A DNA stretch of 64,000 nucleotides. Source: a virus. The first letter of the stretch is position 1, and each line of letters opens with the position of its first letter. The stretch lies in IMG/VR virus record IMGVR_UViG_3300032309_001546, positions 81,920 through 145,919 of that record; one strand, 5' to 3'. Under the pieces are notes generated by a model that did no database searches, was not told the origin of the DNA, and saw only the letters and a list, made by a program, of their open reading frames with translations. Shown piece after piece: positions 11,759-36,062 of the stretch. A program made the position numbers and the translations under genes.

Positions 11759-11844
11759 GACAGACTCCGTTTGTTACGAAGACACACATAATGTCTTCAC
11801 CATGAAAGGCGAGCGCAGCGAGCCTAATACTGTGTAGCGGAGTA

Positions 11845-12925: not shown

Positions 12926-12969
12926 TGACGTTCTCCGTGGTAAGTGAGCCAAAGGCGGCTCATCATGAA

Positions 12970-13140
12970 AGGCGAGCGCAGCGATGCCTGTGCTGCGGCG
13001 TTGTTGCTGTTGCCTGCGTAGCGCAGCGGAGCAGGCTGTGTTGCTACCTGCGGAGCGCAGCGAAGCAGGGTAACCACGTAGCGCAGCGGAGTGGTGTGTC
13101 CTGTGGTTCTGATGAGCGTAGCGCAGCGGAGTGAATCAGA
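12970..13140 (+). repeat. cluster of five GC-GCA-GC triloop hairpins with GA/GNA internal mismatches
   Basis: 12970-12989, 13013-13035, 13047-13069, 13073-13095, 13108-13140; single copies at 6019, 8033, 11807, 12275. Confidence 0.85.
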
Positions 13141-13211
13141 GGCGAGGACTCGGCGCAGCCCAGCGGAGTATCTGGACTTTTTTACGACTATTTGTACTAT
13201 TTTTGTATTAT

Positions 13212-13238
13212 AGAAAGAATAGCCCATTGCTGGGCTAC
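13212..13238 (-). terminator. intrinsic terminator of the giant ORF
   Basis: TAGCCCA-GCAA-TGGGCTA then TTCTTTC. Confidence 0.8.
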
Positions 13239-13250
13239 TCAATCTAATGG

Positions 13251-16200
13251 CTACTTCTTACCCGTGATACGGTTAAGACGTGCCGCGACACCGGCCTTCT
13301 TCTCCGAGGGAGCAGGGGCGGGCTTCTCTTCAGCCTCAACCTCGGCGTCGAAGTCATTGGGATCGATGAAGATAATCTTCAGGCCCGACTCTTCAGCGTA
13401 ATCAACCGCATTCTTTGTACCGCCAGTGCTGCCATCCCAGACAGCAATGACGATATCGGCGCAGTCAATCATCTGCATGTTACGGCGCTGCATGCAGAAC
13501 TTGTCTTCGCCATAGGTCTTCTCGCTGACCTGGACGACTTCGCTGGCAACTTCCAGCATGTTCCAGTAGCGCTGCTTGGCTTCGCGGGGCCACATAGCCT
13601 CCTGCTCTACACAGGGGATCATGACCGTGAACGGGATACCCATCTCGTGCGCAATCTCTGCCGCATCCTGGTCAACGCCAAGGGCACCGCCAGTGATTAG
13701 CCAGAGCTTCTCACCGTGCTTGGCAAGACCACGCTCAAGCTGAGCCGCAATCTGTTCACGTACCCAGATGCGCTTCTCCGCATTGGGATTGTATCCGCCG
13801 ATCTTGTCGGGACGGTGACCAGTGAAGGCCACAAAGAAGTACTCCGTCTCTTCGGCTTCAACTTCCTCAGTTGCAGCCGCGATCTTAACCTTGAAGGGAT
13901 CGACATACAGCATACCGGGCTTGTAGTCTGCATACCCTTCGGGGCGGTTGTTGTGGGTAGACTTCGCGCCCGCAGGAGGATTCGGCAGAGTGCTGACATC
14001 CCGCTTCTGGATGTAAAGCATTACTCCATCAAGTCGGGCTTCGTCATACCAGGCTTGAGGGCCCTTCTGGCGGATCTGCCACTCGCTAAGGTCAACGCTA
14101 TCAGCATCAAACTCGATGTAGGGGCCATGGTCCCCGTACACAATGCGTGCGTACTCGGTTGCAATAATGCTTCCATTCGGGGTTTGGATTTCCCCATCAA
14201 AGCCCTGACCATCCTCACGGAGTCCGAGTTTGGCTTCGACTTCACGCTTGTCGGCTTCGCGATTAGGCAAACCAAGCGTTGTGGACTTGAAGTCTTCGGA
14301 CTCTTCGTCTTCGGCAACAGGGCACACAGCGGCCATCGAGGGGCCATTGTCTTCGTATCTGGCTTCGCAGGTCGGGCAGAGACCGGCCACGAAATCCCCC
14401 TCGACTTTGCAGTCCTCACAGGCATTTGTGCAAATGCGGCAGCCAGCGCCCTCGCACACTTCGCACACAGATGTGGGGATGGACTCTTCTGCTTCTTCCT
14501 CAGTCTTGTTGGCAAGGCGCAGCAGGACGTCAGCGTGGCAGGCTTCGGGTGCACAATGGCAAATCAACGACTTGCCAGTAAGTTCTCCGAGGCTATCCAT
14601 GAGATTAACCTGTGCCTTCACCCAAGCCTCGTACTTGGCAATGACTTCCTCACGGTTGCCATCGCGGCCAAGGACGAAGGGATTACCCCACTTGCTGGGA
14701 CGGCCAACGTATACCGCACCGGAAGGAATATCCTTATCTGCCCGGTTGTAGACGGCAGGTGCAGCGTTAGCAACGACCGGAGCGCTAGCCTCAGTGGCTT
14801 CAGACTCTTCGTCTTCGCTGTCCACCCAGCAATCGGTGTAATCGAAGCGGTCGCTGCTCTTGGCCTTCTCGTCTTCCTCAAAGACCTCGGACTCTTCCTC
14901 TTCGTCACCGTACTGGCTAGGGTCGAAGTCCGGGTTCTCTTCACCGAAGTCCGGCTCTTCTGCATCTTCCGGCTCGGGCATCTCGTCAGCGTCCTCCGAG
15001 ATGTCATACTCGTGCGAGGGCTCATCCTCGTAACCCTCCTCGTACGTATCCTCTTCAGGCTCATCACCAGAGAAGACATCGTTGAGATCCTCTTCGCCTC
15101 CACCCTGAGGACCGTTGTCGTCGCCAAGGAAGGTGAGGATCAGGAAGCTGTTCAAGCCCTGAGGCGCGAACCTGGTGCCAACAGCCACGGTGCGACCCAT
15201 GACAGTTTTACCATTCTCGTCCTTGGTCTTGATGTCGGGGTTCCACTCGGTAACCCACTCACGCTCCACAAGCTCTGCCTTCACCGCAGTACCCGGGAAG
15301 ATCTCGATCAAGCGACGCAGGAAACCGAATGAGTCAGCAGCTTCAAGCGTGCTCATAGCGTTGAAGCTGTCGAGCTCAGCCTGCGCTTCTGCGATCTTTG
15401 TCTCGCTGGGCTTCTTGGCCTTCTTCAAGTCAGCCAGTGCGTGACGAAGCTCCTCACCCTTGTTCTTCCGACGAAGCTCGATCTGACGACCGATTTCGCT
15501 GACAGTCGCAAGCTGACCCTCAAAGCCATTGGCCTCTCGACCATCGCTGATGCGCACGCCGGGCAGGCTGAGAAGACCATCGATCCCCCAGCCAAGCTTC
15601 TCGCCGTCACCGCCGAAGCCACCGCAGTTCTTCTCACCACGGATGTAGGCGAGGAGAGCTTCTGCGTCCTGGCGTACCGTCGGGGTACCACCCTTGCCCA
15701 AGTAGAGAGCAAGCTGACGGGCTTCACCGAGGCTGTTATCGTCGAGGCCGTTGATTGCGGCAATGCCATTGCTGGACATCCAGTCCGTGAGGTATTCCCA
15801 GGGACCGCCGACGAAGAACGCAGTGGTAGCGATACCGCCATTCGCCTTAAGGTTGCCATTGGCATCCTCGGTGATGGTGATCTCAAGAGCCTGTGGCTTC
15901 GCATCCTTGCCGACCTTCTTGGCCTTCTCAGCAGGCTGCAGGTAACGATTGGCAAAGGCAAGCCAGGCCATCTTCACAGCAGCGTCGCGGTCTTCAGCCT
16001 CAAAGTTCTTGAGGATGTACGACTCGATCTGGGAGTCTACGAGTTCAATCGCCGCTCTGATGGGCATCGCCGAGTAGGCCAGCCAGAGTGCCTTCTTGGC
16101 ACGCGAGATGTTGCCGCCAGCCAGCATTGCACTGACGACCCTGTAACGACGGTTGCTCTCGTGGCCTGCAGGAGCCATGATCTTGTGGATCAGTTCCTGG

Positions 16201-19200
16201 TTGGTCCAAGCCTGGAGGTTCTTGAAGCTACCGGGGCTCCAGTTCCAGTAGAGCCAGGCCTCGGTCTCTTCGCCAGGGGCCTCGTCTTCCGTGCGACCAA
16301 GCCAAGCAGTGAGCGTCTGGTGCAGGACGTTCTGGCGACCAGCTTCCCACTGAGCATTGGCGAGGGATTCGACCTCATCGATGCACCACTGGCGGTAGTC
16401 AGCCCAGAGGGTGTAGACCTTCGAGCTAAGCTCACCAGCGACGAGGTGGGTAACGATCTCGCCTTCTTCGTTGCGGACGGGAGCGGTCACCTTCGTGCCA
16501 TTCTCGAACAGGGGCTGCATGTCTTCACCGAGGACAGCAACACGCTTGGCCGGGTCGACGAACAAGCTCTTCGCACCAAGGCTGAGCTTCCGCAGAACGG
16601 CAGGCACGAATGCCCAACCTTCACGGCCCTTGCCTTCGGTGACAAGGTCAAGCCAGACCTGGTAGACCTGCACCATCCGGTAGGATGCCCAGGCTTCAGC
16701 GTAACCCGTCATCTTGACCGCTGCGTCAACGATGTCGGACAACGTCACGCCGAAGAGGAGCGTCTCGGAGATCTCCTCACGAAGCTCCTCGAGGAAGGTA
16801 GGCAGCTTCACCCAGCCAACAGCCAGGGACATGCCGTAGATCTTCGCGTTAGCGACGATACCAATCGCCTTCTGGAAGACGTTCTCCTCCATGTTCATCA
16901 CCGACTCGTACAAGCTCTCGTGGCTCATACCAGCAGTGGTGGCTTCGACCGGCGCTTCGGGCTCCGTAACGGCGGTAATGACGAAGTTCTCCGTCTTCAC
17001 CTTGAAAGCCTGACCGAGGATCGTGGCCGCGTTGAGGCGGGTCCACAGGCTCTTGTTCTCCGGGATACCGGCGACCATCTTAGCACGGAGCGCGTTCTTC
17101 TGTGCACGCTTCTCGGCGTTGAGCTTCGCCTTATCAGCAAGAGCGGTACGCCAGGCCAGACCCTTCACGATGAGCATGGCAAGCTTACCACGCGCAGTGG
17201 GGCAGCGGTCATCATAGTCCATGCCTTCGTTTGCCTGGAGCAGGAGGACTACCGTGTCTCCGCTCGCCGTGGTGAACATGATCACCATACGGCCGCTTAC
17301 GCCGATGATGAAGATATTCAGGCTTTCCGGCAGCTCACGGATCTCCGCAACCGTGCCCGACGTTTCGCCGGTGGGGTTACGGAAGAAGATTGCCAGGTTG
17401 GGCGCGCAGTTGTTCTTCGCCCAGCGAGCAAAGTTGGTGCAGTAGACAATAAGACGACCATCAGCCGTCTTCGTCTCCAGCTCCATGGTCTGCTTCGCCT
17501 TCGTAGCAACCTCCTCAGAGTGCTGCCCTTCAGCAATCCAAGCCGCATGCAGCATCGGCCAGAGGACCGGGATGGGGTAGGTTGCCCACAAGTCGCTTCC
17601 CTCCTCGGTAACAGGAGCGATCTTCATCGAGCCAGGCTCAATGTTCTTGCTCAAGGTGCCAACCAGCTGCTGTGCCAGCATGCGGAAGGGGAGAACAGGG
17701 ATTCGCATCGCGCCGAGGAGCTTCGCAAGAACGCTGTTGCGGTTGTCCTCGACCTTGGCCTCTTCGTCGCCAGCAACGAAGTCGTCAGCATCCTCGTCCA
17801 GACCCTTCAGGAAGTCGGGGAGACGCTTCTTGGCGTAGGCGATGTAGCCAGCAATGAGCTGGTAGAACTCCTTCGAGTTGACCTCAGCTCCGAGAAGCAT
17901 AAGGATCGACTGAAGCGACATAACCGCCTTCTCCTTCGTGAGCGCCGCAGTGCCGGGGATCCAGCAAAGGGCATAGTCGTTCTGGGTAGCGGACCACTCG
18001 GTCTTCACCTCACTGGCAATGATGCAGACGCCTTCAGGGAAGTACCGAGCCGGAAGCGGGATGCACATACCCTTGATCAGACCTTCGCTGGTCAAGATAC
18101 GAGCCACCATCGGAGCGGTCAGACCCATGGCCTTCGCCACGTCGGCACGGACAAGCACAAGGCCGTCGAAGAACTTGACCAGTGCAGCGGCAATCTTGCC
18201 CAGGTCCAGGACCTTACCCGGCAGGACAACGCGGGCAGTAACCCGCGAGATCCAGTACGAGTCAGCATACTTAGCAATGCGGCCCAGGGTCTTACCCTTG
18301 AACCGCAGAGCCGCCATGCTGACCTTCTTGGCTTCGGGCGTGCAGTAGAGGGTCATACCCTTCTGCAGAACCCGAATGGTGACAAGGCCAAGCTTCTTAG
18401 CGTTGGCCACGGCATCGGTATCGTCGTCAGCGACAACGAGACCTTCGAGGAGTCCAGGGCTATCGTCAGCCGCAGGACTAGTAGCACACGCCTCCTCAAG
18501 GAAGGCTGCGAACGTGCCGGGAGTGCATACCCGGACTTTCTTGTTACCCATCTTGTTCTCCTTAGGGGTGGGTGCCCCGGTGTGCTTCGTCGAGGCCAGG
18601 ATGATTCCCGGCTTAACGGAAGCTTTGGTGTCGTTGTTGGTGCTGGTGGCTTCACCGTTTAGGTCATTGTTGACCTCGGCAAAGATATCCTCGCAAGCCG
18701 CCATAAGACGAGCTGCGATGGCTGAGATGGCGTCGCTGGGGATGCCGGCATAGAGGCGGTCATAGCCACCTCTCATGGTCAACTCGGTACCGTCCGCCTG
18801 GCAGACATTGCAGAATTGGCCCTTTGAGCCAAATCCTGCAACACCGCAACCGACGCAGGTCTCGGGCCCGCAGTCGGCTTCGCTGGGCTTAGCCTTAACC
18901 ATGGCCTCGAGCTTCGTCGCAAGGGCATTGCCCACTACAACGAACAGGATACCGACGATGCCGACGACAAACAGAAAGCCGGGTCCTGCAAGGAACTCGG
19001 CCGGGCTCTTAGCCCAAGCGGCTTCGACCGCCTGGCTGAACGTGGGTGCTGCAGCGGCGAGTACGGCGATAAGCGGGGAGCTGGCCTTCACCGCATTGCG
19101 GCGTTGGCGGCTCAGTTCCCGCTTTCTGGTGCGCTTCTGGGCATCCTCAGTCGCCGTCATGGCGAAGAAGACGCTTGCGGTATCCTGTGCGGACTTGCCC

Positions 19201-20048
19201 GTGTTACCACAGACAGCGGCTTCGATGCGCTTGGCAAGGGTGGTCTTGATGACCACAATCTTAGCGCCGATAGCTACGGGCTTCACAGGAGTAACCTGCT
19301 TGGCCTTTGCCGCCGCGATGTGCGCCGAGAAGGTCATGGCCTTCGTGACGCGGGGGAATTTCGCGACGGGCTTCGCAGCAGCCTTAGCGACGGGCTTCGC
19401 AACGGGCTTGGAGGCAGCCTTGGGAGCAGGCTTTACAGCGGGCTCAGCGACGGCTTCCACTGCCACTTCCGTGACAGCAGCAACCTCGATGGCAGGGGCA
19501 GGGGCAGGCTTCACAGGAGCCTTAGCGACAGGCTTGGCAATTGCCTTCGGAGCGGGCTTGGCGACAGCCTTGGGGATATGGACCCCCTTCGACCGCAGCC
19601 AGCGGTCAAGGCGGATAGTGGTCCAGCAGTTACGCCGGGCCAAACGGGCTGCATGGCGGGTAAGCGCCTGCAGCCTGAGCGACGCCGCCGACTGGGCAGC
19701 AACAGTCCGCCGAAGCGGAAGGACGATGGCGTATACGTTCGCCAGAAAACGGGCCACGAAGGCCAAGATGACACGGACCATGGGATGGTCCTTACCCTCC
19801 GCGAGGAGGATTGGGGTGGTCGGCTTCACCGAATTGGCAAAGCGGACCACGAGGGAAGCGGGGATGCGGGGAGCGATGCGGGTTGCAGCCTCCGTGACCA
19901 GCACGAAGCTGGTGACGAAGAAGCTGACTAGGGCAGCGGCCTGCTGCGAAAGGGTGGGGGCCAGCTGGGCCTCCACGGTCAGCGCCGTTGCGAAAACGGC
20001 GAACACCACAGCCACGATGGCGGTGATGGCGAGTTGGATCCGAGACAT
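13251..20048 (-). CDS. 2265-aa multidomain protein: membrane N-terminus, putative two-barrel (YonO/QDE-1-like) RNA polymerase core, acidic linker, DUF4326, Zn ribbons, unknown YADYK domain, YspA/SLOG (DUF1273)
   Basis: Ordered motifs FDG..., R...G.IKG, FFRNP, GMDYDD, IGIVAN, IVDAAVKMTG; YVGRPSKWGNPF...CHCAPEACHADVL; FTGHRP...GGALGVD...RN..MID...AVWDGS.GGT; AGGAGG RBS. Confidence 0.75.
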   Translation of the reverse strand: MSRIQLAITAIVAVVFAVFATALTVEAQLAPTLSQQAAALVSFFVTSFVLVTEAATRIAPRIPASLVVRFANSVKPTTPILLAEGKDHPMVRVILAFVARFLANVYAIVLPLRRTVAAQSAASLRLQALTRHAARLARRNCWTTIRLDRWLRSKGVHIPKAVAKPAPKAIAKPVAKAPVKPAPAPAIEVAAVTEVAVEAVAEPAVKPAPKAASKPVAKPVAKAAAKPVAKFPRVTKAMTFSAHIAAAKAKQVTPVKPVAIGAKIVVIKTTLAKRIEAAVCGNTGKSAQDTASVFFAMTATEDAQKRTRKRELSRQRRNAVKASSPLIAVLAAAAPTFSQAVEAAWAKSPAEFLAGPGFLFVVGIVGILFVVVGNALATKLEAMVKAKPSEADCGPETCVGCGVAGFGSKGQFCNVCQADGTELTMRGGYDRLYAGIPSDAISAIAARLMAACEDIFAEVNNDLNGEATSTNNDTKASVKPGIILASTKHTGAPTPKENKMGNKKVRVCTPGTFAAFLEEACATSPAADDSPGLLEGLVVADDDTDAVANAKKLGLVTIRVLQKGMTLYCTPEAKKVSMAALRFKGKTLGRIAKYADSYWISRVTARVVLPGKVLDLGKIAAALVKFFDGLVLVRADVAKAMGLTAPMVARILTSEGLIKGMCIPLPARYFPEGVCIIASEVKTEWSATQNDYALCWIPGTAALTKEKAVMSLQSILMLLGAEVNSKEFYQLIAGYIAYAKKRLPDFLKGLDEDADDFVAGDEEAKVEDNRNSVLAKLLGAMRIPVLPFRMLAQQLVGTLSKNIEPGSMKIAPVTEEGSDLWATYPIPVLWPMLHAAWIAEGQHSEEVATKAKQTMELETKTADGRLIVYCTNFARWAKNNCAPNLAIFFRNPTGETSGTVAEIRELPESLNIFIIGVSGRMVIMFTTASGDTVVLLLQANEGMDYDDRCPTARGKLAMLIVKGLAWRTALADKAKLNAEKRAQKNALRAKMVAGIPENKSLWTRLNAATILGQAFKVKTENFVITAVTEPEAPVEATTAGMSHESLYESVMNMEENVFQKAIGIVANAKIYGMSLAVGWVKLPTFLEELREEISETLLFGVTLSDIVDAAVKMTGYAEAWASYRMVQVYQVWLDLVTEGKGREGWAFVPAVLRKLSLGAKSLFVDPAKRVAVLGEDMQPLFENGTKVTAPVRNEEGEIVTHLVAGELSSKVYTLWADYRQWCIDEVESLANAQWEAGRQNVLHQTLTAWLGRTEDEAPGEETEAWLYWNWSPGSFKNLQAWTNQELIHKIMAPAGHESNRRYRVVSAMLAGGNISRAKKALWLAYSAMPIRAAIELVDSQIESYILKNFEAEDRDAAVKMAWLAFANRYLQPAEKAKKVGKDAKPQALEITITEDANGNLKANGGIATTAFFVGGPWEYLTDWMSSNGIAAINGLDDNSLGEARQLALYLGKGGTPTVRQDAEALLAYIRGEKNCGGFGGDGEKLGWGIDGLLSLPGVRISDGREANGFEGQLATVSEIGRQIELRRKNKGEELRHALADLKKAKKPSETKIAEAQAELDSFNAMSTLEAADSFGFLRRLIEIFPGTAVKAELVEREWVTEWNPDIKTKDENGKTVMGRTVAVGTRFAPQGLNSFLILTFLGDDNGPQGGGEEDLNDVFSGDEPEEDTYEEGYEDEPSHEYDISEDADEMPEPEDAEEPDFGEENPDFDPSQYGDEEEESEVFEEDEKAKSSDRFDYTDCWVDSEDEESEATEASAPVVANAAPAVYNRADKDIPSGAVYVGRPSKWGNPFVLGRDGNREEVIAKYEAWVKAQVNLMDSLGELTGKSLICHCAPEACHADVLLRLANKTEEEAEESIPTSVCEVCEGAGCRICTNACEDCKVEGDFVAGLCPTCEARYEDNGPSMAAVCPVAEDEESEDFKSTTLGLPNREADKREVEAKLGLREDGQGFDGEIQTPNGSIIATEYARIVYGDHGPYIEFDADSVDLSEWQIRQKGPQAWYDEARLDGVMLYIQKRDVSTLPNPPAGAKSTHNNRPEGYADYKPGMLYVDPFKVKIAAATEEVEAEETEYFFVAFTGHRPDKIGGYNPNAEKRIWVREQIAAQLERGLAKHGEKLWLITGGALGVDQDAAEIAHEMGIPFTVMIPCVEQEAMWPREAKQRYWNMLEVASEVVQVSEKTYGEDKFCMQRRNMQMIDCADIVIAVWDGSTGGTKNAVDYAEESGLKIIFIDPNDFDAEVEAEEKPAPAPSEKKAGVAARLNRITGKK

Positions 20049-20292
20049 GAGTTACCTCCTAGTCAACGGGGTCCAGCGCGATCTATAGGGAAGCATTCCC
20101 TATGACCGACATACCAGTGTCTTGTAACACACTGGAAGATTTCTGGTCCTTTATGGGAAGGACCCTGTTTAAAACCCTGGCTTTCTGTTCGCTCCGGCAT
20201 TGACCCATACTACCTTCTTGGAAGATACTGGGGTGCCATTCGAACTATCCGGCCCATTGCGACCACCCCTTAGCAGAGAGCTGGTCCACATT

Positions 20293-20323
20293 TTAGCCCA
20301 TAGTAGTGCAACTATTTAAGTAT
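20293..20323 (-). promoter_or_regulatory. class-A repeated motif (TACTTAAATAGT-N0-11-ATGRGYTAA) upstream of the polymerase gene
   Basis: Same motif precedes every unit from 20.3 to 27.1 kb. Confidence 0.7.
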
Positions 20324-20339
20324 CGTACAAAAAATACCC

Positions 20340-21893
20340 TTCCTGGGAAGTTCATTAAAACACTTACACACCCAGTGTGCAGTTTGCTCAACGCATAAAT
20401 TACTAGTCTGATACTTGTTAACAGACCAGCGATCTATACGCCGTGAACCCATCCAGGGACGCCAGGAGCCTTGCCTCCGTCCTGGGATTAGCTTCGCACA
20501 TTAGCATGACATAAAGCGTTTTATCCCTTAAAGGATTCTTGCGCTGCAGTCTTCTTCTCCCACTACATTACTAGACTAGAGGTTCAATGGGCCTCTATGC
20601 TAGGGATCTTGCCGCCGAATTGCGCGAGAAGATATAACCATCCTACTCCTTTTGAGAGCAAGAGCATCTAGTAATTACCTGACCTATGTGTAGTTATCTA
20701 TGGGCAAACAGATCCTAACAAGAACTGAACCTCTGGCAGCGGTTTCTTGTTAGTTTAGGCGTACAAGCGCCTATCCCCTCTTATACGTGCATGCCTGGCA
20801 GTCATCACATACTAATTGGGGGCTGATCTTTTGCTTGCATAGTGATTTGGGTTCTTCTTACCAGTAAGAGCGGCGCTACTCGCTAAAACCAGTATATAGG
20901 GTGTTTATAACCCAATCCAAATGCAAACGGCTCCTCGGTATTTCAACCGAATCACAGCCTTCTACAAGTGTCAAGTGTGGGAGTCAAAGACACAGCATCC
21001 TTCTTGGGACGCTTTGTGTCATACTTCTGTTACGAAGCTAAAGCAACGAATCTCACCATCTCACAGACCAGGTCCTGTCTACACAGTAATCAACTGTATA
21101 GCGGTTATCTGATCTGTCCTCGTTGATTCCTCGTTATCTCTGCAGAAGGGCTACCGCTTAAAGTAGAAATCCTCCTGGATAACTTGGTCCACCGGCCACA
21201 CCTGCTAGAGTGCGCCTACTCTGTCTCACGACAGTTGGGGAATTATGCAGCATTTACTCTGTAAAAACAGGGAAAGGGTTCAGCACTTGCCGCCTTGCTT
21301 AAGGGCGGGAGTTTGCCTATCACGAGATCTGCTTGTGTCGGTTTTGCGGGGTGTTTTTGTTGAGGTTCCCCTTTTGCCTCCTTTTTTAAAGTCCGTACTC
21401 TCTTTCGAGGACAACAGACTTAGTGCGCGTAATCAACGCTTGGGAAAGTTAAAACCCATATAGTCATCTTTGGTGAGGGATGACGCCCTACTGCCGACAG
21501 GCAGACCCCTAAAATCTCTATTAGCCATACTTGACATCCACACCACCGACATATTAGGAGCTTTCGCCCCCGGAAGAACTGTTCCTCCTTGGTGTTTCAG
21601 TCTGTGTTGCAGGCCGTACGAGATCTTAGGTTGACAGTTTTTCTGCTACCGACTTTTAGGGATTGCTCCCTCCGCCGGATTTATGCAGGAACACAGTTTT
21701 GGCTGTTAGCCTAGCTGCTTATACTGTCCTCGTGTCCTCTCCGACCATCCACCTTTGGGCATGGCCAGATACTGCACAAGTCAACGAACCGGTAAGATTC
21801 GTTGCTTATTTTTTATGGGGCGTTAACTACGTGCAAAACCTTGCCAACGCTGATCCCCACATATGGTCACTCCATATGTTTAAGACTCCACTG
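20340..21893 (-). ncRNA. candidate giant (~1.55 kb) structured ncRNA
   Basis: No minus-strand ORF of 60 aa or more; two class-A motifs upstream; dense hairpins with GNRA loops on the minus strand. Confidence 0.6.
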
Positions 21894-22080
21894 TTTAGCC
21901 CATAGTATTCTTTTGACGACTATTTTTGGACTATTTGAGTAAAGTAAAACAATTTAACCCATAACTATACAACTCTTTGAGTATTAGAGAAAAAATAGCC
22001 CTTAACGCGGGCTAGACGTGCTTTTCTGTTCCCAAGAAGCAACTCTCGGATGGGCACCACCCCATCAGGCACCTCCCGTT

Positions 22081-22368
22081 TCAGGGAGACGGGCACTCCC
22101 CATCTTTGAGGTGACGCTTGCTGCGCACACAGCCGTATTCGGCCATGCGAGCCTCCACCTTGCGAAGGTGAAGAGTGTCACCCCAAACCGAGATGTAGGG
22201 TTTATTAGCCAAAGCTCCGAGAAGCCGGCCAATTCCCCACATCACGTCGGAAGCCTCGTCCTTGAGTTCTTCAAGGTTTTTAACCTCGAAAAGCTCTACT
22301 GCCTCTTCGGCAATATGGACGATAGCAACCCGGATGGGAAGCACCTCAAGACATTTACAGAAATGCAT
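22081..22368 (-). CDS. possible MazG-like all-alpha NTP pyrophosphohydrolase
   Basis: EEAVEL...EELKDEASDV resembles EExxE...ExxD; AGGAG RBS. Confidence 0.5.
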   Translation of the reverse strand: MHFCKCLEVLPIRVAIVHIAEEAVELFEVKNLEELKDEASDVMWGIGRLLGALANKPYISVWGDTLHLRKVEARMAEYGCVRSKRHLKDGECPSP

Positions 22369-22526
22369 CTGTAGACTCCTTGTGGTAATGCTGTATGCAG
22401 TACAGCGCTGTGAGTAAAAGGATCTTTACTTCACTGTTTAGCCCAGACTAGTGTACTATTTAAGTATGTTTCAAAGAATGACCCATCTTGCGATGGGTCA
22501 CTCAGTGATGTCTCTCTTCCCTTTCT

Positions 22527-22889
22527 CTACTTCCGCCAGGCCCCAGTACGAGCCTCGACCACAGTCTTGAGGTTGCAGTAGAGGTTGCCCACCGCATAGC
22601 GGCAGGGGGTAGCGGTGGTCAGCCAGTCCTCGTTGGACTGAAGGTCGGGACCCTTGGCCATGGCCAGAGAGTAGCGAGCTTCCTCTGACAACTGGCATTT
22701 GGCCAGAGTCTTGCGGTGCACCGAGACCTTGACGGTGTCGATCTCGCCGCTGAAAGAAGCCGCCACGTGGTTCCAGCCGATGGCCTTGAGGGCCTCGACG
22801 ATCTCCGTCTTGTAGACCGAGACGGGAAGGGTGGGGGGGAAGGAGATAAGGAGCGCGCTATCCGTCACATCATTGATCTTCTTGCACAT
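22527..22889 (-). CDS. cassette hypothetical protein
   Basis: GGAGG RBS before ATG 22889. Confidence 0.75.
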   Translation of the reverse strand: MCKKINDVTDSALLISFPPTLPVSVYKTEIVEALKAIGWNHVAASFSGEIDTVKVSVHRKTLAKCQLSEEARYSLAMAKGPDLQSNEDWLTTATPCRYAVGNLYCNLKTVVEARTGAWRK

Positions 22890-23034
22890 GGTTTCCTCCA
22901 TTGGAAAGGCGGTGTGGCGCACCGTGGCAGGGGGTAGAATCTGCCATCTTCTAGTTCATAGTAGGACTATTTAAGTACTATAGATTACTTACCCCACCTT
23001 GCAGTGGGGCTTTCATCTACCTCAACCTCAGCTC

Positions 23035-23181
23035 TTAGTCCTGCATGCAGCTCCACGAGATGCCGATCCAGGACAGGATCAGAAGACCCGCGCAGACCGG
23101 CTCCATCACGCCAGAGCCAAAGCTCCAGCCGAGGGTGCAGGTTGCGAGGAGGAAGCTGGCGGTAGCGATTGCATTCTTCAT
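23035..23181 (-). CDS. cassette small two-TM peptide
   Basis: 48 aa, hydrophobic, GGAG RBS, fills a cassette slot. Confidence 0.65.
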   Translation of the reverse strand: MKNAIATASFLLATCTLGWSFGSGVMEPVCAGLLILSWIGISWSCMQD

Positions 23182-23325
23182 GACATTCTCCAGTTTGGCA
23201 TCATTCTTTACGAAGTGTAAAGCTATGTATGCCCACAGCCTAGCCCATACTACTATTTGTGTATCCTAGAAAAGATAGCCCACCTCCTCAGGGTGAGCCA
23301 TCCTATCTATCCTCAATCGCTCTAG

Positions 23326-23505
23326 TTACTCGCTGCGGTCAGCAAGCCAACCACCACGACGCACCGACTGGCGGCACGCGAGGCAGTCACAGCCCCAAAG
23401 GGCGTCGGCGATGTCGCTTTCCCAGGCAAACTCCTCTTCCTCCGTGAGGAGGACGATGAGCTCGATCTGAAACAGGGCGAGGATCTTGACAAGAATCTTG
23501 TCCAT
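23326..23505 (-). CDS. cassette small protein (CxCxxC)
   Basis: AAGGAG RBS before ATG 23505. Confidence 0.7.
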   Translation of the reverse strand: MDKILVKILALFQIELIVLLTEEEEFAWESDIADALWGCDCLACRQSVRRGGWLADRSE

Positions 23506-23630
23506 GGCTAACTCCTTTACGAGTGGGGACGACATTATCCCAAAGCTGGCCAAAGATTAACTCATAGCAGTACAACTATTTATGTATTGTCGATTACTTA
23601 CCCCTTACGGGGCTTTCGTCGGGTTGCTCT

Positions 23631-23891
23631 CTACTTGTCGCCGCATACCGGGAGTGGCGTGCCGTTAGGCACGTCACTCATCGGGTGTGGGTGAGTCGCA
23701 GAGAAGTCTACAATCCACCACCGCCAACGGGTTTCCCCGCTAAGGCTGCAGTCGATCTCAACAAGCTCGTCCTCAACGCAGTACCCAGCAACCTTCGGCT
23801 CGATCGTACCGGTGGTCGGCACGGGGAGCGTGTTGTTGCTGGAGCAAGCGGTGAGGAGCGAGGCAAGCAACGCGATCTTCAACTTATCCAT
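23631..23891 (-). CDS. cassette lipoprotein
   Basis: MDKLKIALLASLLTA-C lipobox; AAGGAG RBS. Confidence 0.75.
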   Translation of the reverse strand: MDKLKIALLASLLTACSSNNTLPVPTTGTIEPKVAGYCVEDELVEIDCSLSGETRWRWWIVDFSATHPHPMSDVPNGTPLPVCGDK

Positions 23892-24015
23892 GAGATCTCC
23901 TTTCGGTTTGGGTGACATTACCCATCTCACCGTTTAGCCCATAGGACTGTTTAAGTATTGTTCAAAGAATAGCCCGCCTAAGCGAGCCACTCGATGATGC
24001 AGTCTACCTCATCCT

Positions 24016-24216
24016 CTAGTCATCGAATCCATACTGCCAAAACAGCGAGGACACGATGGCCATGCCGATCAGCACGATCGTTGCGAACGTGCCGAGAGCG
24101 TTGAACAGGTTCTCGGGGCCGGCGACCCGAAGCCAGTTGTCCATGAGGCAACCAGCGAAGAACATATTCAAGAGGTGAACGAAGACGCGGACAATGTTCC
24201 AGAGAACCTTAACCAT
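24016..24216 (-). CDS. cassette two-TM membrane protein
   Basis: AAGGAG RBS; two hydrophobic helices. Confidence 0.7.
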   Translation of the reverse strand: MVKVLWNIVRVFVHLLNMFFAGCLMDNWLRVAGPENLFNALGTFATIVLIGMAIVSSLFWQYGFDD

Positions 24217-24357
24217 GACAGACTCCTTTCTAGTAATATTCCCCAACGAAATGCGGGGCTATATCACCACACTTTAACCCACACTACTTGAACTATTTAA
24301 GTACAGTAGAAAAGATAGCCCACCTTGCGGTGAGCCAGAGCTTCCCTGATTGTGGAC

Positions 24358-24648
24358 CTAAGGCTTGTTAGCCAAGTGGTCCGTGATGGCCTTGCTGTTG
24401 CCCTGCGAAGGGCAGCACCCAAACTCGCGGAACCAGTAGTCCCGCTTGTTATGCCACTTCTTCTTGGCGGCCTTCTTCCGAGCCTCGCTTGCCTTTTTAC
24501 GGGCAGCACGGACAGAGGCGCGAATCTTGCGAGCCTGCTGACGAGTTTCCTCGTCAACAAGCCCGCAGAACAGGATCATGAAACCCGTTCCTGCACCCCC
24601 GAGAAGAATGACGGCGAAAATCAATCGCAACCACATCATCGAGTCCAT
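24358..24648 (-). CDS. cassette membrane-anchored basic protein
   Basis: AGGAGG RBS; TM helix then K/R/A-rich helix. Confidence 0.75.
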   Translation of the reverse strand: MDSMMWLRLIFAVILLGGAGTGFMILFCGLVDEETRQQARKIRASVRAARKKASEARKKAAKKKWHNKRDYWFREFGCCPSQGNSKAITDHLANKP

Positions 24649-24806
24649 AACAAACCTCCTTTACGTTAGGTTAGCGCTCTGCGAATCTGCAGTTTACGCC
24701 ATGTCATGTCACCTTCTAAGTCATACTATTTAAGTATCTTAGAAAAAATGACCCGTCCAAAGACGGGCCATGTTCCCTTGCCCACCCTAAGGTGAGCCGT
24801 TGCTCT

Positions 24807-25049
24807 TTACCTGAACGGAACGTACAGGTAGAGAGCGCGACGATTGAACCCAGTCGCCTTGTGGATGCTCGCGAAGAGCCGGTATTCCGGGGGCGAGCTG
24901 GTCATGGCGCTGTAAACGCCACGTGCGACCTGGTAGCCGCATCTGCTCCCGCGGTTCTCGAAGGCAGTCCAGGCCGCAGCCTGAGACAGCCAGTCGAGAA
25001 GACGATCCTCCTCTGTCTTGGGGGTCGTCTCGTTGGTGTTGTTGCTCAT
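24807..25049 (-). CDS. cassette hypothetical protein
   Basis: AGGAGG RBS before ATG 25049. Confidence 0.7.
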   Translation of the reverse strand: MSNNTNETTPKTEEDRLLDWLSQAAAWTAFENRGSRCGYQVARGVYSAMTSSPPEYRLFASIHKATGFNRRALYLYVPFR

Positions 25050-25204
25050 TTTATCCTCCTTGAAGGTTGCAGTGTGGCGCACTGGGCAGGGGGTAGAATC
25101 TGCCATATATTAACTCATAGCAGAACTCTGTAAGTATTAGAGAAGAAATACCCCACCCTAGCATAAGCCAAAGTGGGGCAATCCTCTAGTCCATCAACCA
25201 GTTA

Positions 25205-25432
25205 TTACCAGTTGAAATCCTGCTCAACATGATGGAGCACCTCAGTGCCAAACACGCTGAACCGAATCAACAGTCGAAGGCGCACAGGGGTGCCACCCTC
25301 GATGCCGTGGTGCTGCAGCCCAAAGGCCACAAGATTCTTCCACCCACGGCCGGGGTGGGGAGTGGTGTCAATGACAACACCGTTCACCATGGTCTCAACC
25401 TCAAGCAACTGCATCTCGGTCGTGATCATCAT
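25205..25432 (-). CDS. cassette hypothetical protein
   Basis: GGAGG RBS before ATG 25432. Confidence 0.7.
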   Translation of the reverse strand: MMITTEMQLLEVETMVNGVVIDTTPHPGRGWKNLVAFGLQHHGIEGGTPVRLRLLIRFSVFGTEVLHHVEQDFNW

Positions 25433-25632
25433 CTTATCCTCCATTGAAAAGGAAGGGAATTTCACCCCACCCGAGAACACTCTCAGGATTTGAAGTTCAT
25501 AGAAAATTTGAACCTCCACACTTTAGCTCATACTATTTAAGTATATAAGAAAAGATGGCCCATCCTCTCGGACAGGCCACCTAAGCTAATACAAGCTGAC
25601 TCAAGGGCTCAAAGGATCAAGCTCTCAATCAA

Positions 25633-25833
25633 TCAATGCCAGGGATTACGCCCAGCAGGATTGAAGAAGCCGCGACGGGCGCACTCACGCTTGATCTCCT
25701 CGCGCCTCTCTTCCATATCCCGGCAGTAGCTGTTGCCCCAGCCGTACTGGCTGTGGAAACGGACATCATCCGCGAGAAGGTTGACGGAAATGAGGGAATT
25801 GCAGTTCCGAATCTCAATCTTCAACTTATCCAT
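25633..25833 (-). CDS. cassette hypothetical protein
   Basis: GGAGG RBS before ATG 25833. Confidence 0.7.
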   Translation of the reverse strand: MDKLKIEIRNCNSLISVNLLADDVRFHSQYGWGNSYCRDMEERREEIKRECARRGFFNPAGRNPWH

Positions 25834-25973
25834 GGCAAACCTCCAGGTTGAAATCACTCCTATGAAATATAGGTAGTGTGCCAAATGTTAACTCATAGTA
25901 GTACTCTGTTAGTATGTTAGAAAAGATAGCCCCCGAAGGGGCCAGAGCTTGACCAGAGCGTGAGCTCTAGTTA

Positions 25974-26237
25974 CTACTTGTACATCGCCTTAATGAAGGC
26001 GTTCTCGATGGCGCGAACCAGCTGCCAGCTCGCGTTCATCTCCTTGTCCAGGTCCCAGGAGGAACCGTCCTTGGCCTCGATGTCCTTGAGGCGGGAGATC
26101 TCGACCTTGATCGTGCTAAGCGTGTTCCGAAGCTCCTCATGGGAACCCTCTTTGATACCGTTGTTGTCAACAGAATCATTGAAGGTTGCCCAGCAGGTCT
26201 CCGCAATCTCGCTCATCTGGATCATGCTCTTGTTCAT
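25974..26237 (-). CDS. cassette hypothetical helical protein
   Basis: GGAGG RBS before ATG 26237. Confidence 0.7.
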   Translation of the reverse strand: MNKSMIQMSEIAETCWATFNDSVDNNGIKEGSHEELRNTLSTIKVEISRLKDIEAKDGSSWDLDKEMNASWQLVRAIENAFIKAMYK

Positions 26238-26394
26238 CTTATCCTCCGTTGGTTGGAAGGGAATTTCACCCTGCCCGAGACAATTCCCAGGACTTGAAGC
26301 TAGTAAGATTACCAACTCCCACATGTTAACCCATAATACTATTTGAGTATCTTAGAAAAGATAGCTCGCCATTACAGCGAGCCAGAGCTAATCT

Positions 26395-26751
26395 CTAACG
26401 CCAGTTGTGAACAATGCTGAACCAGGGTTGAACCAGGTCAGCCGGAAGCTCCTTGTGGAGCTTATCCGTGATTTCCCTCCACTCCAGCATGTGCTGGTAG
26501 CGGATAGAGGACGGGATCTCACGGTTGTAGCCGTGGAACCCCTCAAACCAAGCGACGAACACCTGGATATCCTCTGCAGTAGCCTTGCGAGCCTGATCCC
26601 TAATCTCCTCAAGGGAGACCTGGGCAGCAGACTTGACGGCAGGAGCAACGTTGACAGTCTTGACGCTCTCCTTCCCGAAGGGGAAGAAAAGAGTAACAAG
26701 GCCGACGACGAAGCAAAGAGCCATCAAAGCGACAAGAATAACGTTCAACAT
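26395..26751 (-). CDS. cassette membrane-anchored protein
   Basis: AGGAGG RBS; N-terminal TM helix. Confidence 0.75.
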   Translation of the reverse strand: MLNVILVALMALCFVVGLVTLFFPFGKESVKTVNVAPAVKSAAQVSLEEIRDQARKATAEDIQVFVAWFEGFHGYNREIPSSIRYQHMLEWREITDKLHKELPADLVQPWFSIVHNWR

Positions 26752-26870
26752 GGCAAACCTCCTGGTTGAAATCGTTCCTATGAATTATAGGTAACGTGCC
26801 ACAAGTTAAGTCATACTATTTGTGTATGTAAGAAAGAATGACCCACCTTGCGATGGGTCACTCAATCAGG

Positions 26871-27062
26871 CTACAGAGAGAAGTATCTCTGTGACCACAC
26901 GACGGACAGGCTGTTCCACGTACCCCAGGTCAGGGTGCTATGGCGGGTGTGCTTGTCCATGCTGCGGTCGATGACATCAAGCTCCTTGCGGGAGACTGCC
27001 GAAGCAATCTCTTGAAGGAACTTCTTTGCCAGGTACTCATTAGACGCGACATTGATTCTCAT
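26871..27062 (-). CDS. cassette hypothetical protein
   Basis: GGAG RBS. Confidence 0.7.
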   Translation of the reverse strand: MRINVASNEYLAKKFLQEIASAVSRKELDVIDRSMDKHTRHSTLTWGTWNSLSVVWSQRYFSL

Positions 27063-27165
27063 TGTCTATCTCCATGAAGGGTGAAATTACCCACATACTA
27101 TCCCATACTATTTAAGTATAGGAGAAAAAATGACCCATCTCTCGATAGGTCATTGATCCTAGTAC

Positions 27166-27654
27166 CTACTTGATGTAGGTATTGATTGACATCAGGCTGC
27201 GCATAGCCTGGTGTTGATACTCCGTTTTGGCAACCCACTCAAAGGTCGCCTCAATGGAGCGTTCGAGCCGATTAAGCGGCCCGCTGAGGAACTGAATCTC
27301 ACCCTGCGACATAGGCGGGGTAAGGTCCGACTCAACAAACTTAGCAAAGACATCCCACTGGTTGTTAAGCCAGAGAGTGAAAGATGCGTGAGCCTGTTGA
27401 GCCCGGACCAAGCGTTCCATTGCTTGATCCGTCGTGATGTTCTGAGCACAGGCGTTGATGCCAGTCCTCCAGACGCAAGTCTTGAGGCCCACCGCCTGGA
27501 TCTCAAGAACATCACGCTCCACTGCAGCGACCTGCTCGTGGAAGTACCGAGAGATCATCCCGGCGGTGGGTGCCTCATTGGTTGAATAGGTATAAATACC
27601 CTCAACCGATGAAGCGTTGACGAGGAGAGCGGACACGATAACGTTGTTCGACAT
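27166..27654 (-). CDS. cassette hypothetical protein (first gene of the minus-strand block)
   Basis: GGAG RBS before ATG 27654. Confidence 0.7.
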   Translation of the reverse strand: MSNNVIVSALLVNASSVEGIYTYSTNEAPTAGMISRYFHEQVAAVERDVLEIQAVGLKTCVWRTGINACAQNITTDQAMERLVRAQQAHASFTLWLNNQWDVFAKFVESDLTPPMSQGEIQFLSGPLNRLERSIEATFEWVAKTEYQHQAMRSLMSINTYIK

Positions 27655-27779
27655 GATTGACTCCAAGACAAAGGGCGGAATTGCCCACACACTAGCCCAT
27701 AACGGTACAGGCGGTCGATCCAAAGGGGGTGGGCTAAAACGAATAGGGGGTACACATCTTTACCAGGCGGGCTATATAG

Positions 27780-28110
27780 AGTACCCACTCTTTTCCGAAA
27801 AAAAATATATTAATTATATATATCCAGATATATAGCCTGTCTTTAGATTGCTCTTTTCCAAAAAAAATATATATAAATATATAAGCCTATATAGAGTTCT
27901 TTAGGCAAGTCTACGTCCCCTTTTCAGACCTATACCCCCTTTTCCCCTAGCTTTCCCACTAAGTGTTTTCTCAAAATATATATAGAGGTTTTCCCCTATA
28001 CTATATATAGGACTTTTCCTTATACATATAAGGTCTTTCCTTAAATAATATTTAAGGTTTTTTCCTTTTCCCTATATAGCGTCCCTTATGGTATCAAGTT
28101 AATAAAGTTT
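27780..28110. repeat. AT-rich low-complexity strand-switch region with CTTTTCCRAAAAAAAATATAT direct repeats and many TTTCC/TATATAG units
   Basis: Seen directly; lies between divergent gene blocks. Confidence 0.75.
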
Positions 28111-29442: not shown

Positions 29443-29473
29443 CTTTTAACTATTTGTACTTTAAGGGATTTAA

Positions 29474-36060: not shown

Positions 36061-36062
36061 TT

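Follow-up and report, generated by a model that had tools for sequence, protein, structure and literature searches.

The closest described system is that of the PeSL (promoter-early stem-loop) mobile regulatory cassettes, known from hyperplastic genome regions in T4-type phages (Arbiol et al. 2010, PMC2839356; Comeau et al. 2014, PMC4122927). There, composite repeats of terminator and promoter precede the small ORFans of a variable early region; between close relatives, whole ORF modules have been inserted, deleted, replaced or reordered, the changes ending in the repeats, and homologous recombination from repeat to repeat is the inferred mechanism. A second point of comparison is provided by the early and pre-early promoter sets of phages that encode a two-barrel RNA polymerase of their own, such as P23-45 (gp96/gp64), the jumbo phages phiKZ and AR9, and the crAss-like phi14:2 (gp66, PDB 6vr4). 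P23-45 encodes a pair of these polymerases, a separate conserved motif belonging to each, and also has a conserved terminator motif (PMC10770324); the promoters of jumbo-phage RNA polymerases are short and phage-specific, for example T(-3)ATG(+1) in phiKZ (PMC7598289). In bacteria, a GGGA motif immediately downstream of the -10 element boosts sigma-A promoters (PMC3526302).

We analysed a stretch of 64,000 nucleotides (the window) in the 146-kb contig of an uncultured freshwater-type phage. Its array shares the features listed above for PeSL cassettes, but it belongs to a phage outside the T4 type (the nearest TerL sequences are those of Moorella MTATph1 and Bacillus 0305phi8-36, at <30% identity), the promoter part has neither a -35/-10 pair nor an AT-rich UP region, the hairpin is always upstream and keeps phase with another conserved box (A), boxes A and B are separated by a spacer that changes in 3-nt steps, and two of the cassette slots are filled by a polymerase gene and by a unit of 1.5 kb without ORFs. 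As in the phages with two-barrel polymerases, short motifs that are highly conserved and specific to the phage recur ahead of early genes, there are two motif classes per genome and perhaps a sequence-specific terminator element, and the invariant TATG of box B is similar to the phiKZ promoter; unlike in those phages, the link between polymerase and box B is a predicted one, a single such polymerase was found in the contig, the catalytic loop is DxDD rather than DxDGD, and box B also precedes the polymerase gene.

Organisation of the array

Sixteen units follow each other in direct succession on the minus strand from 27704 to 20286; 14 of them carry a small ORFan gene, one (1.5 kb) is free of ORFs, and one carries a 2265-aa gene (Table 1). 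In each junction a GC hairpin with a 12-13 nt tail, mostly T-rich, is followed by box A (ATACTTAAATAGT), a spacer and box B, and downstream of box B come a structured leader, a Shine-Dalgarno (SD) site and the ATG. The 14 ORFs (48-162 aa, from 27654 to 22081) all have an SD site and a GC-rich hairpin on their 3' side; the hairpin tails are T-rich in 12 cases (TATCTTTTCT or CATTTTTTCT type), while in the other two the tail is TAAGTAATC, without a T-run. The array of single-gene cassettes described in the original prediction is real, with its ORFs, hairpins and enriched motifs on one strand. The series extends further than was given there, as far as the promoter of the 2265-aa gene at 20286. Unit 1 (27704) has box B but neither box A nor hairpin upstream, and the 28 nt 5' of it are conserved in all relatives.

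Table 1. Units of the array, all on the minus strand (positions in the window; spacer, nt between the upstream box A and box B)
Unit	Extent	Box B	Spacer	Gene and product	Hairpin	Box A
1	27107..27704	box B alone: hexamer CGTTAT at 27704, ATGGGCTAG, GTGG to 27685; leader		A, 27654-27166, 162 aa	27154-27129	27119-27107
2	26815..27110	TAGTATGGGATAG	0	B, 27062-26871, 63 aa	26863-26836	26827-26815
3	26338..26818	TAGTATGACTTAA	0	C, 26751-26395, 118 aa, N-terminal TM	26384-26362	26350-26338
4	25903..26338	TATTATGGGTTAA	3	D, 26237-25974, 87 aa	25944-25927	25915-25903
5	25532..25900	TACTATGAGTTAA	6	E, 25833-25633, 66 aa	25582-25553	25544-25532
6	25125..25535	TAGTATGAGCTAA	0	F, 25432-25205, 75 aa	25180-25149	25137-25125
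7	24725..25122	TGCTATGAGTTAA	6	G, 25049-24807, 80 aa	24771-24748	24737-24725
8	24292..24728	TAGTATGACTTAG	0	H, 24648-24358, 96 aa, TM	24337-24316	24304-24292
9	23946..24286	TAGTGTGGGTTAA	9	I, 24216-24016, 66 aa, TM	present	23958-23946
10	23575..23946	TCCTATGGGCTAA	3	J, 23891-23631, 86 aa, lipobox LLTAC	TAAGTAATC tail	23587-23575
11	23252..23569	TGCTATGAGTTAA	9	K, 23505-23326, 59 aa	present	23264-23252
12	22966..23252	TAGTATGGGCTAG	3	L, 23181-23035, 48 aa, lipobox/TM	TAAGTAATC tail	22978-22966
13	22455..22963	TACTATGAACTAG	6	M, 22889-22527, 120 aa	present	22467-22455
14	21972..22450	TAGTCTGGGCTAA	8	N, 22368-22081, 95 aa	22014-21996	21984-21972
15	20311..21966	two tandem B boxes (hexamers 21966, 21907)			near 20347-20334	20323-20311
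16	13195..20305	TACTATGGGCTAA (20305), 250-nt leader	9	20048-13251, 2265 aa, two-barrel RNA polymerase domain at aa ~560-1240	present	A-like, ATACAAAAATAGT, 13207-13195; no B after, instead ACTCCGCT at 13169

Between 19900 and 28200 there are 21 terminator-like sites, against 6.7 +/- 1.9 in shuffled sequences, and they are mostly on the minus strand, immediately ahead of box A. With up to two mismatches, TACTTAAATAGT has 28 matches in the window where 7.8 +/- 3.0 are expected, and 15 of them lie at 20311-27118, every one on the minus strand; with at most one mismatch, all 11 matches of the 146-kb contig are inside the array. TATGRGYTAR is found 12 times where 1.3 matches are expected, and the array holds 11 of the 12. 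Both boxes are confined to the array region, one 7.4-kb stretch of the contig.

About 5-6 of the 14 array products have membrane or lipoprotein N-termini (TM or lipobox), and a Pfam search of all 14 gave no family above threshold. The array ORFs are under purifying selection, with pN/pS between orthologs of 0.08-0.38. Unit 15 contains no SD-preceded ORF in about 1.5 kb, matches no Rfam family and has no gene called in its counterpart in any relative; it shows about 90% nucleotide identity to them.

The two boxes and their spacing

The consensus of box B is A-n-TAsTAT-GRGYTAA-nnn-GTGG, and the ATGRGYTAA motif that had been recognised earlier is present as part of this longer element. The palindrome ATACT-TAAAT-AGTAT, reported as frequent, exists only in the sites with a spacer of 0 and in one with a spacer of 3 nt. 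The spacer had been taken to vary freely from 0 to 11 nt; the actual A-to-B values are 0, 0, 3, 6, 0, 6, 0, 9, 3, 9, 3, 6, 8, 9 and 9 nt, with 26 nt at the ORF-free unit. The value of 8, at unit 14, is the sole spacer below 25 nt that is not divisible by 3, and it is identical in relatives. This quantisation in steps of 3 nt is unaccounted for by the cassette model presented below.

The absence of a fixed sigma70 -35/-10 pair was correctly anticipated: a scan of the coding strand found no such pairs, and sites aligned on box B contain no -35 information and no TG extension. Box A lies at a constant 12-13 nt from the upstream hairpin, as counted on the sequences, and its distance from box B is variable. 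Box B without box A or hairpin heads the whole leftward region in our phage and in its relatives L036, L037 and L039, and box A with a hairpin but without box B is present downstream of the giant gene in our phage and in all close relatives. Because box A is phased to the hairpin and each box can lack the other, boxes A and B are probably not a single unit, and on this point the original reading, which stands as regards cassette shuffling and the missing sigma70 pair, probably does not hold. Since the first unit has box B by itself, this box is likely the core promoter and the site of transcription start; for box A we infer a functional part of the terminator side or else a movable upstream promoter element.

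Candidate readers of box B

The giant gene product is a QDE-1/crAss-type two-barrel RNA polymerase, whose core has a fold like those of QDE-1, RDR2, the crAss phi14:2 vRNAP and the P23-45 RNAPs, with invariant DG, KG, RxP and GxDxDD. This single-chain phage enzyme is the most likely reader of box B, although we propose it tentatively. The suggestion comes from the class of repeated intergenic motif, which varies between phage groups in step with the polymerase (in groups without the A/B array the polymerase domain is 31% or 22% identical, against 85-93% for the giant protein in the four lineages that have the array) and follows neither the phage sigma (84% or 68%) nor a neighbouring 440-aa gene (82-90%), and from the invariant bases of box B (T.TG, TA and TGG), with conservation extending far downstream of the -10-like hexamer. 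Other observations count against it: relatives with a polymerase domain of only 22-31% identity have a B-like box, CTATGTACTAAGGGATGAGGG, at their first leftward promoter, our phage has the ACTCCGCT motif class in common with the group whose polymerase is 31% identical, and box B contains a TANNNT hexamer with G-R-G and a purine at 7 nt. In addition, as box B also precedes the gene of the polymerase, the phage enzyme would need to come with the virion.

Box B can also be read as a -10 (TANNNT) element with a GGG discriminator for a bacterial holoenzyme, and it is possible, if less favoured by us, that it is an ordinary -35-less, -10-only (TAsTAT) promoter read by the host sigma-A holoenzyme; the cassettes and their shuffling would be unchanged, the G-rich discriminator would strengthen the promoter, transcription would start at the A/G of TAA, and the phage polymerase would be an early product for other signals, for example the ACTCCGCT class. 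The hexamer (51 sites) has T at position 1 in 44, A at position 2 in 42 and T at position 6 in all, and is directly followed by G-R-G and by a putative purine start about 7 nt downstream, with no -35; bacterial promoters of the -10-only kind that have a GGGA-type discriminator are arranged in this way (PMC3526302). Relatives that have very different phage polymerases carry the B-like box at their first promoter, and the polymerase gene is located behind box B (in relative G001 it is the first leftward unit); both observations point in the same direction. Nevertheless, sigma70-type recognition normally needs an A at -11, which is lacking in 9 of the 51 sites; the invariant bases are those given above rather than -11A/-7T, conservation continues to about 8 nt past the presumed start with neither TG extension nor -35, and the motif is restricted to one 7.4-kb stretch, absent from the rest of the 146 kb, its class tracking the phage polymerase. 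Reading by the host core with a phage sigma, the array then being a middle/late class of -10-only promoters comparable to those of T4 gp55, appears improbable. A protein of 368 aa (L042:1003-2109) with sigma70_r2 is indeed encoded, in which only region 2 is recognisable and no region 4 was detected, and box B has no -35 partner; however, this sigma is 84% and 68% conserved in relatives without the A/B array, and the array is made up of small ORFans, heads the leftward region and adjoins the AT-rich control region, as is typical of early genes.

Cassette exchange and a model of the region

Four related contig lineages have the same boxes and a giant protein that is 85-93% identical, and differ in cassette sets and orders: A B C D E F G H I J K L M N in our phage, b B D C c E F d K L M N in L037, D W X Y L M N in L036, and e B X W Y g h G Y d L H j K k N in L039, the ORF-free unit and the giant gene being conserved in all four. 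The L037 ortholog of gene C is 88% identical and is placed after D, while the L036 and L037 alleles of gene D are only 30% identical. Non-homologous ORFs have leaders in common: those of units 5 and 3 are nearly identical, and the promoter and leader of unit 9 are ahead of another gene (d) in L037 and L039. In blastn comparisons, 43 of the 64 ends of homology blocks fall inside the block of hairpin tail, A and B, which represents 11% of the arrays; such ends are partly expected at junctions, because these are the only sequence common to all cassettes, and they mark the unit of exchange and not the exact crossover point. Gene order is not invariant in relatives, as the four lineages show, and the comparison supports gain, loss and reordering of cassettes at the repeats in the closest relatives, the role of recombination handle that had been suggested for the repeat.

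Three further readings of the repeats were considered. Box A (ATACT-N5-AGTAT) might be an operator at which a dimeric regulator, from phage or host, switches the whole array on or off together, and not part of a promoter or terminator, an idea that is compatible with the main explanation and is suggested by the perfect 5+5 palindrome of the 0-spacer sites and by the position of box A directly upstream of, or overlapping, the start signals; we regard it as unlikely, given that the palindrome is reduced to ACT/AGT in most sites with spacers of 3-9 nt and that box A is phased to the hairpin rather than to box B, occurs without a following B and is missing at the first unit. Some read-through is plausible because two hairpins have no T-run, and the boxes could then be RNA processing sites of one long leaky transcript from a single promoter at 27704, box B acting as a cleavage signal that leaves 5' hairpins. 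Very little probability is given to this reading, since the first box B has no upstream substrate and sits at the expected promoter position, and 12 of the 14 hairpins resemble intrinsic terminators. Finally, a row of single, unrelated small genes, mostly of no known function, between imperfect palindromes and with content that differs between relatives recalls integron arrays, the repeats corresponding to attC-type sites for a site-specific recombinase; yet a search of the contig (84% complete) found no tyrosine integrase, the control search being positive in 14/14 genomes, each cassette has its own start signal, SD site and terminator, the hairpin stems vary freely in repeats that are not attC-like, and the repeats extend into leaders and first codons, as homologous exchange predicts, so that an integron is scarcely credible here.

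We consider it probable that the locus is a hyperplastic early-gene region of autonomous expression cassettes shuffled at their junctions. Each cassette would consist of box B as core promoter (about 22 nt), a leader of 36-91 nt folding into 5' hairpins, an SD site, one small ORFan and a hairpin terminator with a tail in phase with box A, at 12-13 nt; with one promoter and one terminator per cassette, each gene would be transcribed separately and be shielded from the genes on either side. Unrelated genes are preceded by a nearly identical junction, which comprises the hairpin tail, A, B and often also the leader and first codons, and homologous recombination between junctions, either within a genome or between co-infecting relatives, would insert, delete, replace, duplicate or reorder whole cassettes. 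The logic of this exchange would be that of the PeSL cassettes, and the array would represent PeSL-like modular shuffling outside the T4-type phages and without a -35/-10 promoter.

Organization of the cassette array

The source contig (145.9 kb, 41% GC; CheckV completeness 84%), of which the window covers bases 81920-145919, belongs to a myovirus with genes for sheath, portal, major capsid and TerL; the latter is distant from known phages, its best matches, Moorella MTATph1 and Bacillus 0305phi8-36, being less than 30% identical. The array lies in a GC-rich island (50-64% GC vs ~39% elsewhere) that reads leftward, away from an AT-rich repeat region at 27.74-28.1 kb and from the rightward virion genes. 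This AT-rich stretch is a divergent control region, carrying repeated GGAAAAG/CTTTTCC and TATATA units, that separates leftward from rightward genes; its block ACCCCTATTCGTTTTAGCCCACCCCCTTT, with an inverted TGGGCTAA inside, is kept in all relatives and duplicated in one, G004. The island occupies the same place in all relatives and its sequence is highly divergent there: the polymerase domain that it encodes is 22-31% identical, whereas the flanking 440-aa gene is 82-90% identical.

On the minus strand there are 14 small ORFs of 48-162 aa (genes A to N), each with a GGAG/GAGG Shine-Dalgarno site and a GC-rich hairpin after it. No Pfam family reached threshold for any of the 14 products. The cassette ORFs are real genes, because pN/pS between orthologs is 0.08-0.38. 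Of all cassettes gene N is conserved best, at 91-98% identity across the lineages, and it resembles MazG/PRA-PH-type all-alpha NTP pyrophosphohydrolases below threshold (E 0.048). The array continues past 21895 with a unit of ~1.5 kb containing two B boxes, a terminator, a box A and no ORF, and then with a box B and the gene for a protein of 2265 aa. The ORF-free unit is a candidate large non-coding RNA: it has no Shine-Dalgarno-preceded ORF here and no gene call in any relative, and Rfam gave no match in it or in the array. Among close relatives it is ~90% identical.

The order within a junction is constant, namely hairpin, tail of 12-13 nt, box A (ATACTTAAATAGT), spacer and box B; at the sequence level there are 15 such junctions and one lone box B. 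Twelve junctions have a TATCTTTTCT-like tail and two a TAAGTAATC tail. The two TAAGTAATC-tailed hairpins have no T-run, and as intrinsic terminators they would serve a bacterial polymerase poorly; they keep the 13-nt phase to box A, and their tail type is also found in relatives. An alignment of 51 distinct box B sites, from this phage and three related lineages, gives the consensus A-n-T-A-s-T-A-T-G-R-G-Y-T-A-A-n-n-t-G-T-G-G, with T.TG, TA and TGG invariant, and information content below 0.75 bit at all positions upstream of -2 in the box B-anchored sites. Within the window, box A has 28 matches at up to two mismatches (15 of them in the array) against 7.8 expected, and box B has 12 (11 in the array) against 1.3; within the whole contig the two boxes are restricted to 20.3-27.7 kb, all 11 box A matches at up to one mismatch falling in the array, and are on the minus strand throughout. 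Terminator-like hairpins are three times enriched in the array. The original prediction, an array of some 14 single-gene cassettes each ending in a hairpin and a conserved motif, was thus borne out (14 ORFs, 15 junctions, enrichment above chance). Its view that a fixed sigma70 -35/-10 pair does not fit is also supported, none having been found on the coding strand of the array.

The two boxes are separable. Box A travels with the upstream hairpin: the distance between them is fixed, whereas that from A to B varies, and box B is therefore the best candidate for the core start signal. Hairpin distances were taken from the GC stem, because in RNAfold structures the T-tail pairs with purines upstream of it and so distorts the distance. 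The lone box B, at the first unit, has neither box A nor hairpin and is preceded by a 28-nt stretch conserved in all relatives. Conversely, after the 2265-aa gene a hairpin and box A stand without box B, in this phage and in every close relative, and the next signal is a different motif, ACTCCGCT. In distant relatives ACTCCGCT is found at the same phase, 13 nt past the hairpin stem, often followed directly by ATrGrCC; the bipartite layout therefore predates the present pair of boxes. In the window ACTCCGCT forms a second motif class downstream of the polymerase gene, with CGCTGCGCT(A/C)CG hairpins often following it.

The spacer, counted from the end of box A to the ATG in box B, measures 0, 3, 6 or 9 nt at 14 of this phage's 15 short-spacer sites, and is a multiple of three in 24 of 27 distinct combinations of box A and spacer over all lineages; the three exceptions are one orthologous 8-nt spacer. 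Spacers are built of NNT triplets (AGT, ACT, GCT, CCT) that extend AAT-AGT in box A and TAs-TAT in box B, and slippage or misaligned exchange in such a short triplet tract would yield steps of 3 nt. Three translational readings of this periodicity were discarded. A coding frame ending at the TAA of box B (..YLNS(x)nMG*) has no start codon, is often stopped just before box A and has no constant phase to the gene upstream, all three frames being represented. A mini-ORF ATG-NNN-TAA was rejected because it has no Shine-Dalgarno site and because variants with CTG, GTG and, once, TAC exist. Stops in all three frames do not explain the spacing either, as TAA or TAG is lost from the common variants of box A, ACACAAATAGT, ACTCAAATAGT and ACTAACAGAGT.

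With the purine of the box B TAA as +1, leaders of 36-91 nt result, which fold into 5' hairpins. They belong to a few families, reused before unrelated ORFs (as in units 3 and 5, 4 and 6, 7 and 13), and in some the likeness extends into the first codons (MDKLKI in both E and J; cf. MDKILV in K).

Coordinates of features in and around the array
Feature	Position in window	Strand	Remark
GC-rich island	12000-27700		holds the array
Divergent control region	27721-28110		AT-rich
Lone box B	27704	minus	first unit
TAAGTAATC-tailed hairpins	23616-23587; 23012-22978	minus	
Gene N	22081-22368	minus	95 aa
ORF-free unit	20340-21907	minus	cassette slot between box B and terminator + box A
Box B of the giant gene	20305	minus	
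Giant gene	13251-20048	minus	2265 aa
Box A + hairpin, no box B	13207-13195		after the giant gene
ACTCCGCT sites	13169; 13132; 13092; 11843	minus	second motif class
A/B-like pair	~12345-12310		AAAAATAGT ... ATGGCCAGA, 12-nt spacer
Structured ORF-free units	10900-12400		several, 82-90% identical to units of relatives G001 and G003
Four large genes	28120-39251		searched for a second polymerase
Phage sigma70-family gene	L042:1003-2109 (genome 32881-33987, outside the window)		368 aa, only region 2 detectable

Cassette turnover among relatives

Relatives found through the 440-aa gene (82-90% identical; genomes ~174 kb, terminal repeats in one) share the GC-rich island and its leftward direction; the box A/B array is absent from them, and they use repeated signals of their own, either ACTCCGCT with a GGCTCCTKCGTCGCC hairpin or GGGGCTATCGCCCC. 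Boxes A and B are both present in the relatives found through the giant protein (85-93% identical), namely the contigs L036, L037/L038 and L039/L040.

Order of cassettes in four lineages
Lineage	Order
This phage	A B C D E F G H I J K L M N
L037	b B D C c E F d K L M N
L036	D W X Y L M N
L039	e B X W Y g h G Y d L H j K k N

Gene N, the ORF-free unit and the giant gene are retained in all four lineages. Elsewhere the arrays differ, among other ways, by gain and loss, by swaps of neighbours (C/D, W/X), by relocation of L, H and K and by duplication of Y; alleles are also replaced, as at D, whose identity drops to 30% beside a gene C at 88%. Blocks of nucleotide homology start and stop at junctions, with 43 of 64 block ends inside the tail/A/B block, which makes up 11% of the arrays. 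Because junctions are common to all cassettes, these ends mark the unit of exchange and not the exact crossover. Gain and loss of cassettes at the repeats, which had been proposed from the sequence of this phage, is thus seen in both the content and the order of the four lineages.

Outside these lineages, a blastn comparison of the array with 50,697 phage records gave no match, and in IMG/VR the exact pattern of T-tail plus box A was matched just three times, each a single, unrelated occurrence. A scan of metagenome contigs for the A+B composite with 0-nt spacer returned one 1-kb fragment, L043. This contig of 1015 nt has two junctions of the array type and three cargo ORFs which, judged by eye and not by clustering, are unlike the products of all four lineages. 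The pool of cassettes is probably larger than that sampled here.

The giant protein and candidate readers of box B

The giant protein begins with TM-like segments and an Ala/Pro/Lys-rich stretch, and relatives have homologs of it that are 1483 to 3766 aa long. A polymerase core at residues ~560-1240 is followed by an acidic linker, a DUF4326 and, at the C-terminus, a SLOG (YpsA) domain. The core has 20 remote homologs, which share invariant DG, KG, RxP, GxDxDD and SDxVDA motifs; the putative catalytic loop G-x-D-x-D-D is invariant across 17 homologs of 20-31% identity and contains three Asp, spaced differently from those of the metal-binding DxDGD. PDB sequence searches with this domain gave no match, and the fold search alone did: for the AlphaFold (AF2) model of the core (pLDDT 87) the top Foldseek matches were QDE-1, RDR2, 6vr4, 8h2n and 8f72 (E 2e-6 to 1e-3, TM 0.25-0.44), and four groups of enzymes were matched with probability ~1: QDE-1, plant RDR2, the virion polymerase of the crAss-like phage phi14:2 and the polymerases of P23-45, P74 and P32. 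Because the modelled fold matches these enzymes, the giant protein is predicted to enclose a single-chain two-barrel RNA polymerase of the QDE-1/YonO/crAss gp66/P23-45 type.

A search of the contig with the polymerase profile found one copy only, and hhalign of the four large genes to the right of the control region against this profile gave no second polymerase. The Pfam vRNAP_dom match of the 440-aa protein is weak and below threshold. The T7-type RNAP model (PF00940) had no match in the contig, which is uninformative as its control likewise matched nowhere. The phage also encodes a protein of the sigma70 family.

We infer from sequence that box B is a promoter and that it may be specific to the phage. 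The two-barrel polymerase is our favoured though tentative candidate for its reader, with a likelihood not far below even. The class of motif shifts between phage groups in parallel with the polymerase (31% and 22% identical) rather than with the phage sigma (84% and 68% identical in relatives), which argues for the phage enzyme and makes the phage sigma an improbable reader. The host sigma-A holoenzyme is a substantial but minority possibility. In its favour, box B reads as a good TANNNT hexamer followed by G-R-G, with a purine 7 nt downstream, and so resembles GGGA-discriminator promoters (PMC3526302). Of the sigma70 -10 positions, T at -7 is present in 51 of 51 sites and A at -11 in 42 of 51. 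A B-like box stands at the head of the leftward region also in relatives with very different polymerases, and the polymerase gene is itself behind a box B. Set against the host enzyme, the invariant bases of box B differ from the -11A/-7T pair and conservation extends beyond the presumed start site; both points favour the phage polymerase. P23-45 and jumbo phages offer parallels for phage-specific motifs, for the presence of two motif classes in one genome, for conservation of a terminator motif and for a start element TATG (PMC10770324, PMC7598289).

A more far-reaching reading, which we regard as rather unlikely, is that the array is a complete, self-contained and portable system for early transcription, with its own DxDD polymerase, box B promoters, hairpin/box A terminators, cargo slots and co-evolving signals. 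Box B would then be the promoter of a previously uncharacterised DxDD clade of single-chain two-barrel RNA polymerases, carried within a giant TM-anchored protein, and the hairpin with its phased box A would be a sequence-specific terminator of the phage enzyme. As the polymerase evolved these signals would change with it, and they would serve at the same time as handles for recombination; the 3-nt steps of the spacer would record or tune the joining of terminator and promoter modules.

Relation to known cassette systems

Among described systems, the PeSL cassettes of T4-type phages come closest. They are composites of stem-loop and early promoter before ORFans in hyperplastic regions; modules are shuffled through them, and they give rise to mini-circles (PMC2839356, PMC4122927). 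The array studied here is alike in its repeated composite of hairpin and start signal, here recognized from sequence alone, in its concentration before ORFans at 20.3-27.7 kb, as in hyperplastic regions, and in the indels, replacements and shuffles, bounded by repeats, by which relatives differ. However, the promoter part of PeSL is a sigma70 consensus (-35, -10 and AT-rich upstream region), which is not found here, and the present phage, which has a sheath gene, is not a T4-type myovirus, as its TerL indicates. An integron is ruled out: the contig, 84% complete, has no adjacent tyrosine recombinase (IntI), PF00589 being absent from it where the positive control matched in 14 of 14 genomes, and integron cassettes are promoterless and driven by one Pc, whereas each cassette here has its own box B. 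Particular to this array are the separable A and B boxes, the phasing of box A to the hairpin, the 3-nt-step spacer, the polymerase gene and long ORF-free unit in cassette slots, and a motif class that co-varies with a DxDD two-barrel polymerase.

PeSL-type shuffling of regulatory cassettes is therefore not peculiar to T4-like phages or to sigma70 promoters; the case described here is a large myovirus unrelated to these phages, and its -35-less start signal may be that of the polymerase which the phage itself encodes. The array also brings together, in little space, many early ORFans with fast turnover, among them several membrane or lipoproteins, and early ORFans of this kind are the usual place for host-takeover and anti-defence functions. 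To our knowledge, few promoter rules have been worked out for QDE-1/crAss-type polymerases; for a new branch of these enzymes the 51 aligned sites offer a clean candidate promoter and perhaps a terminator as well.
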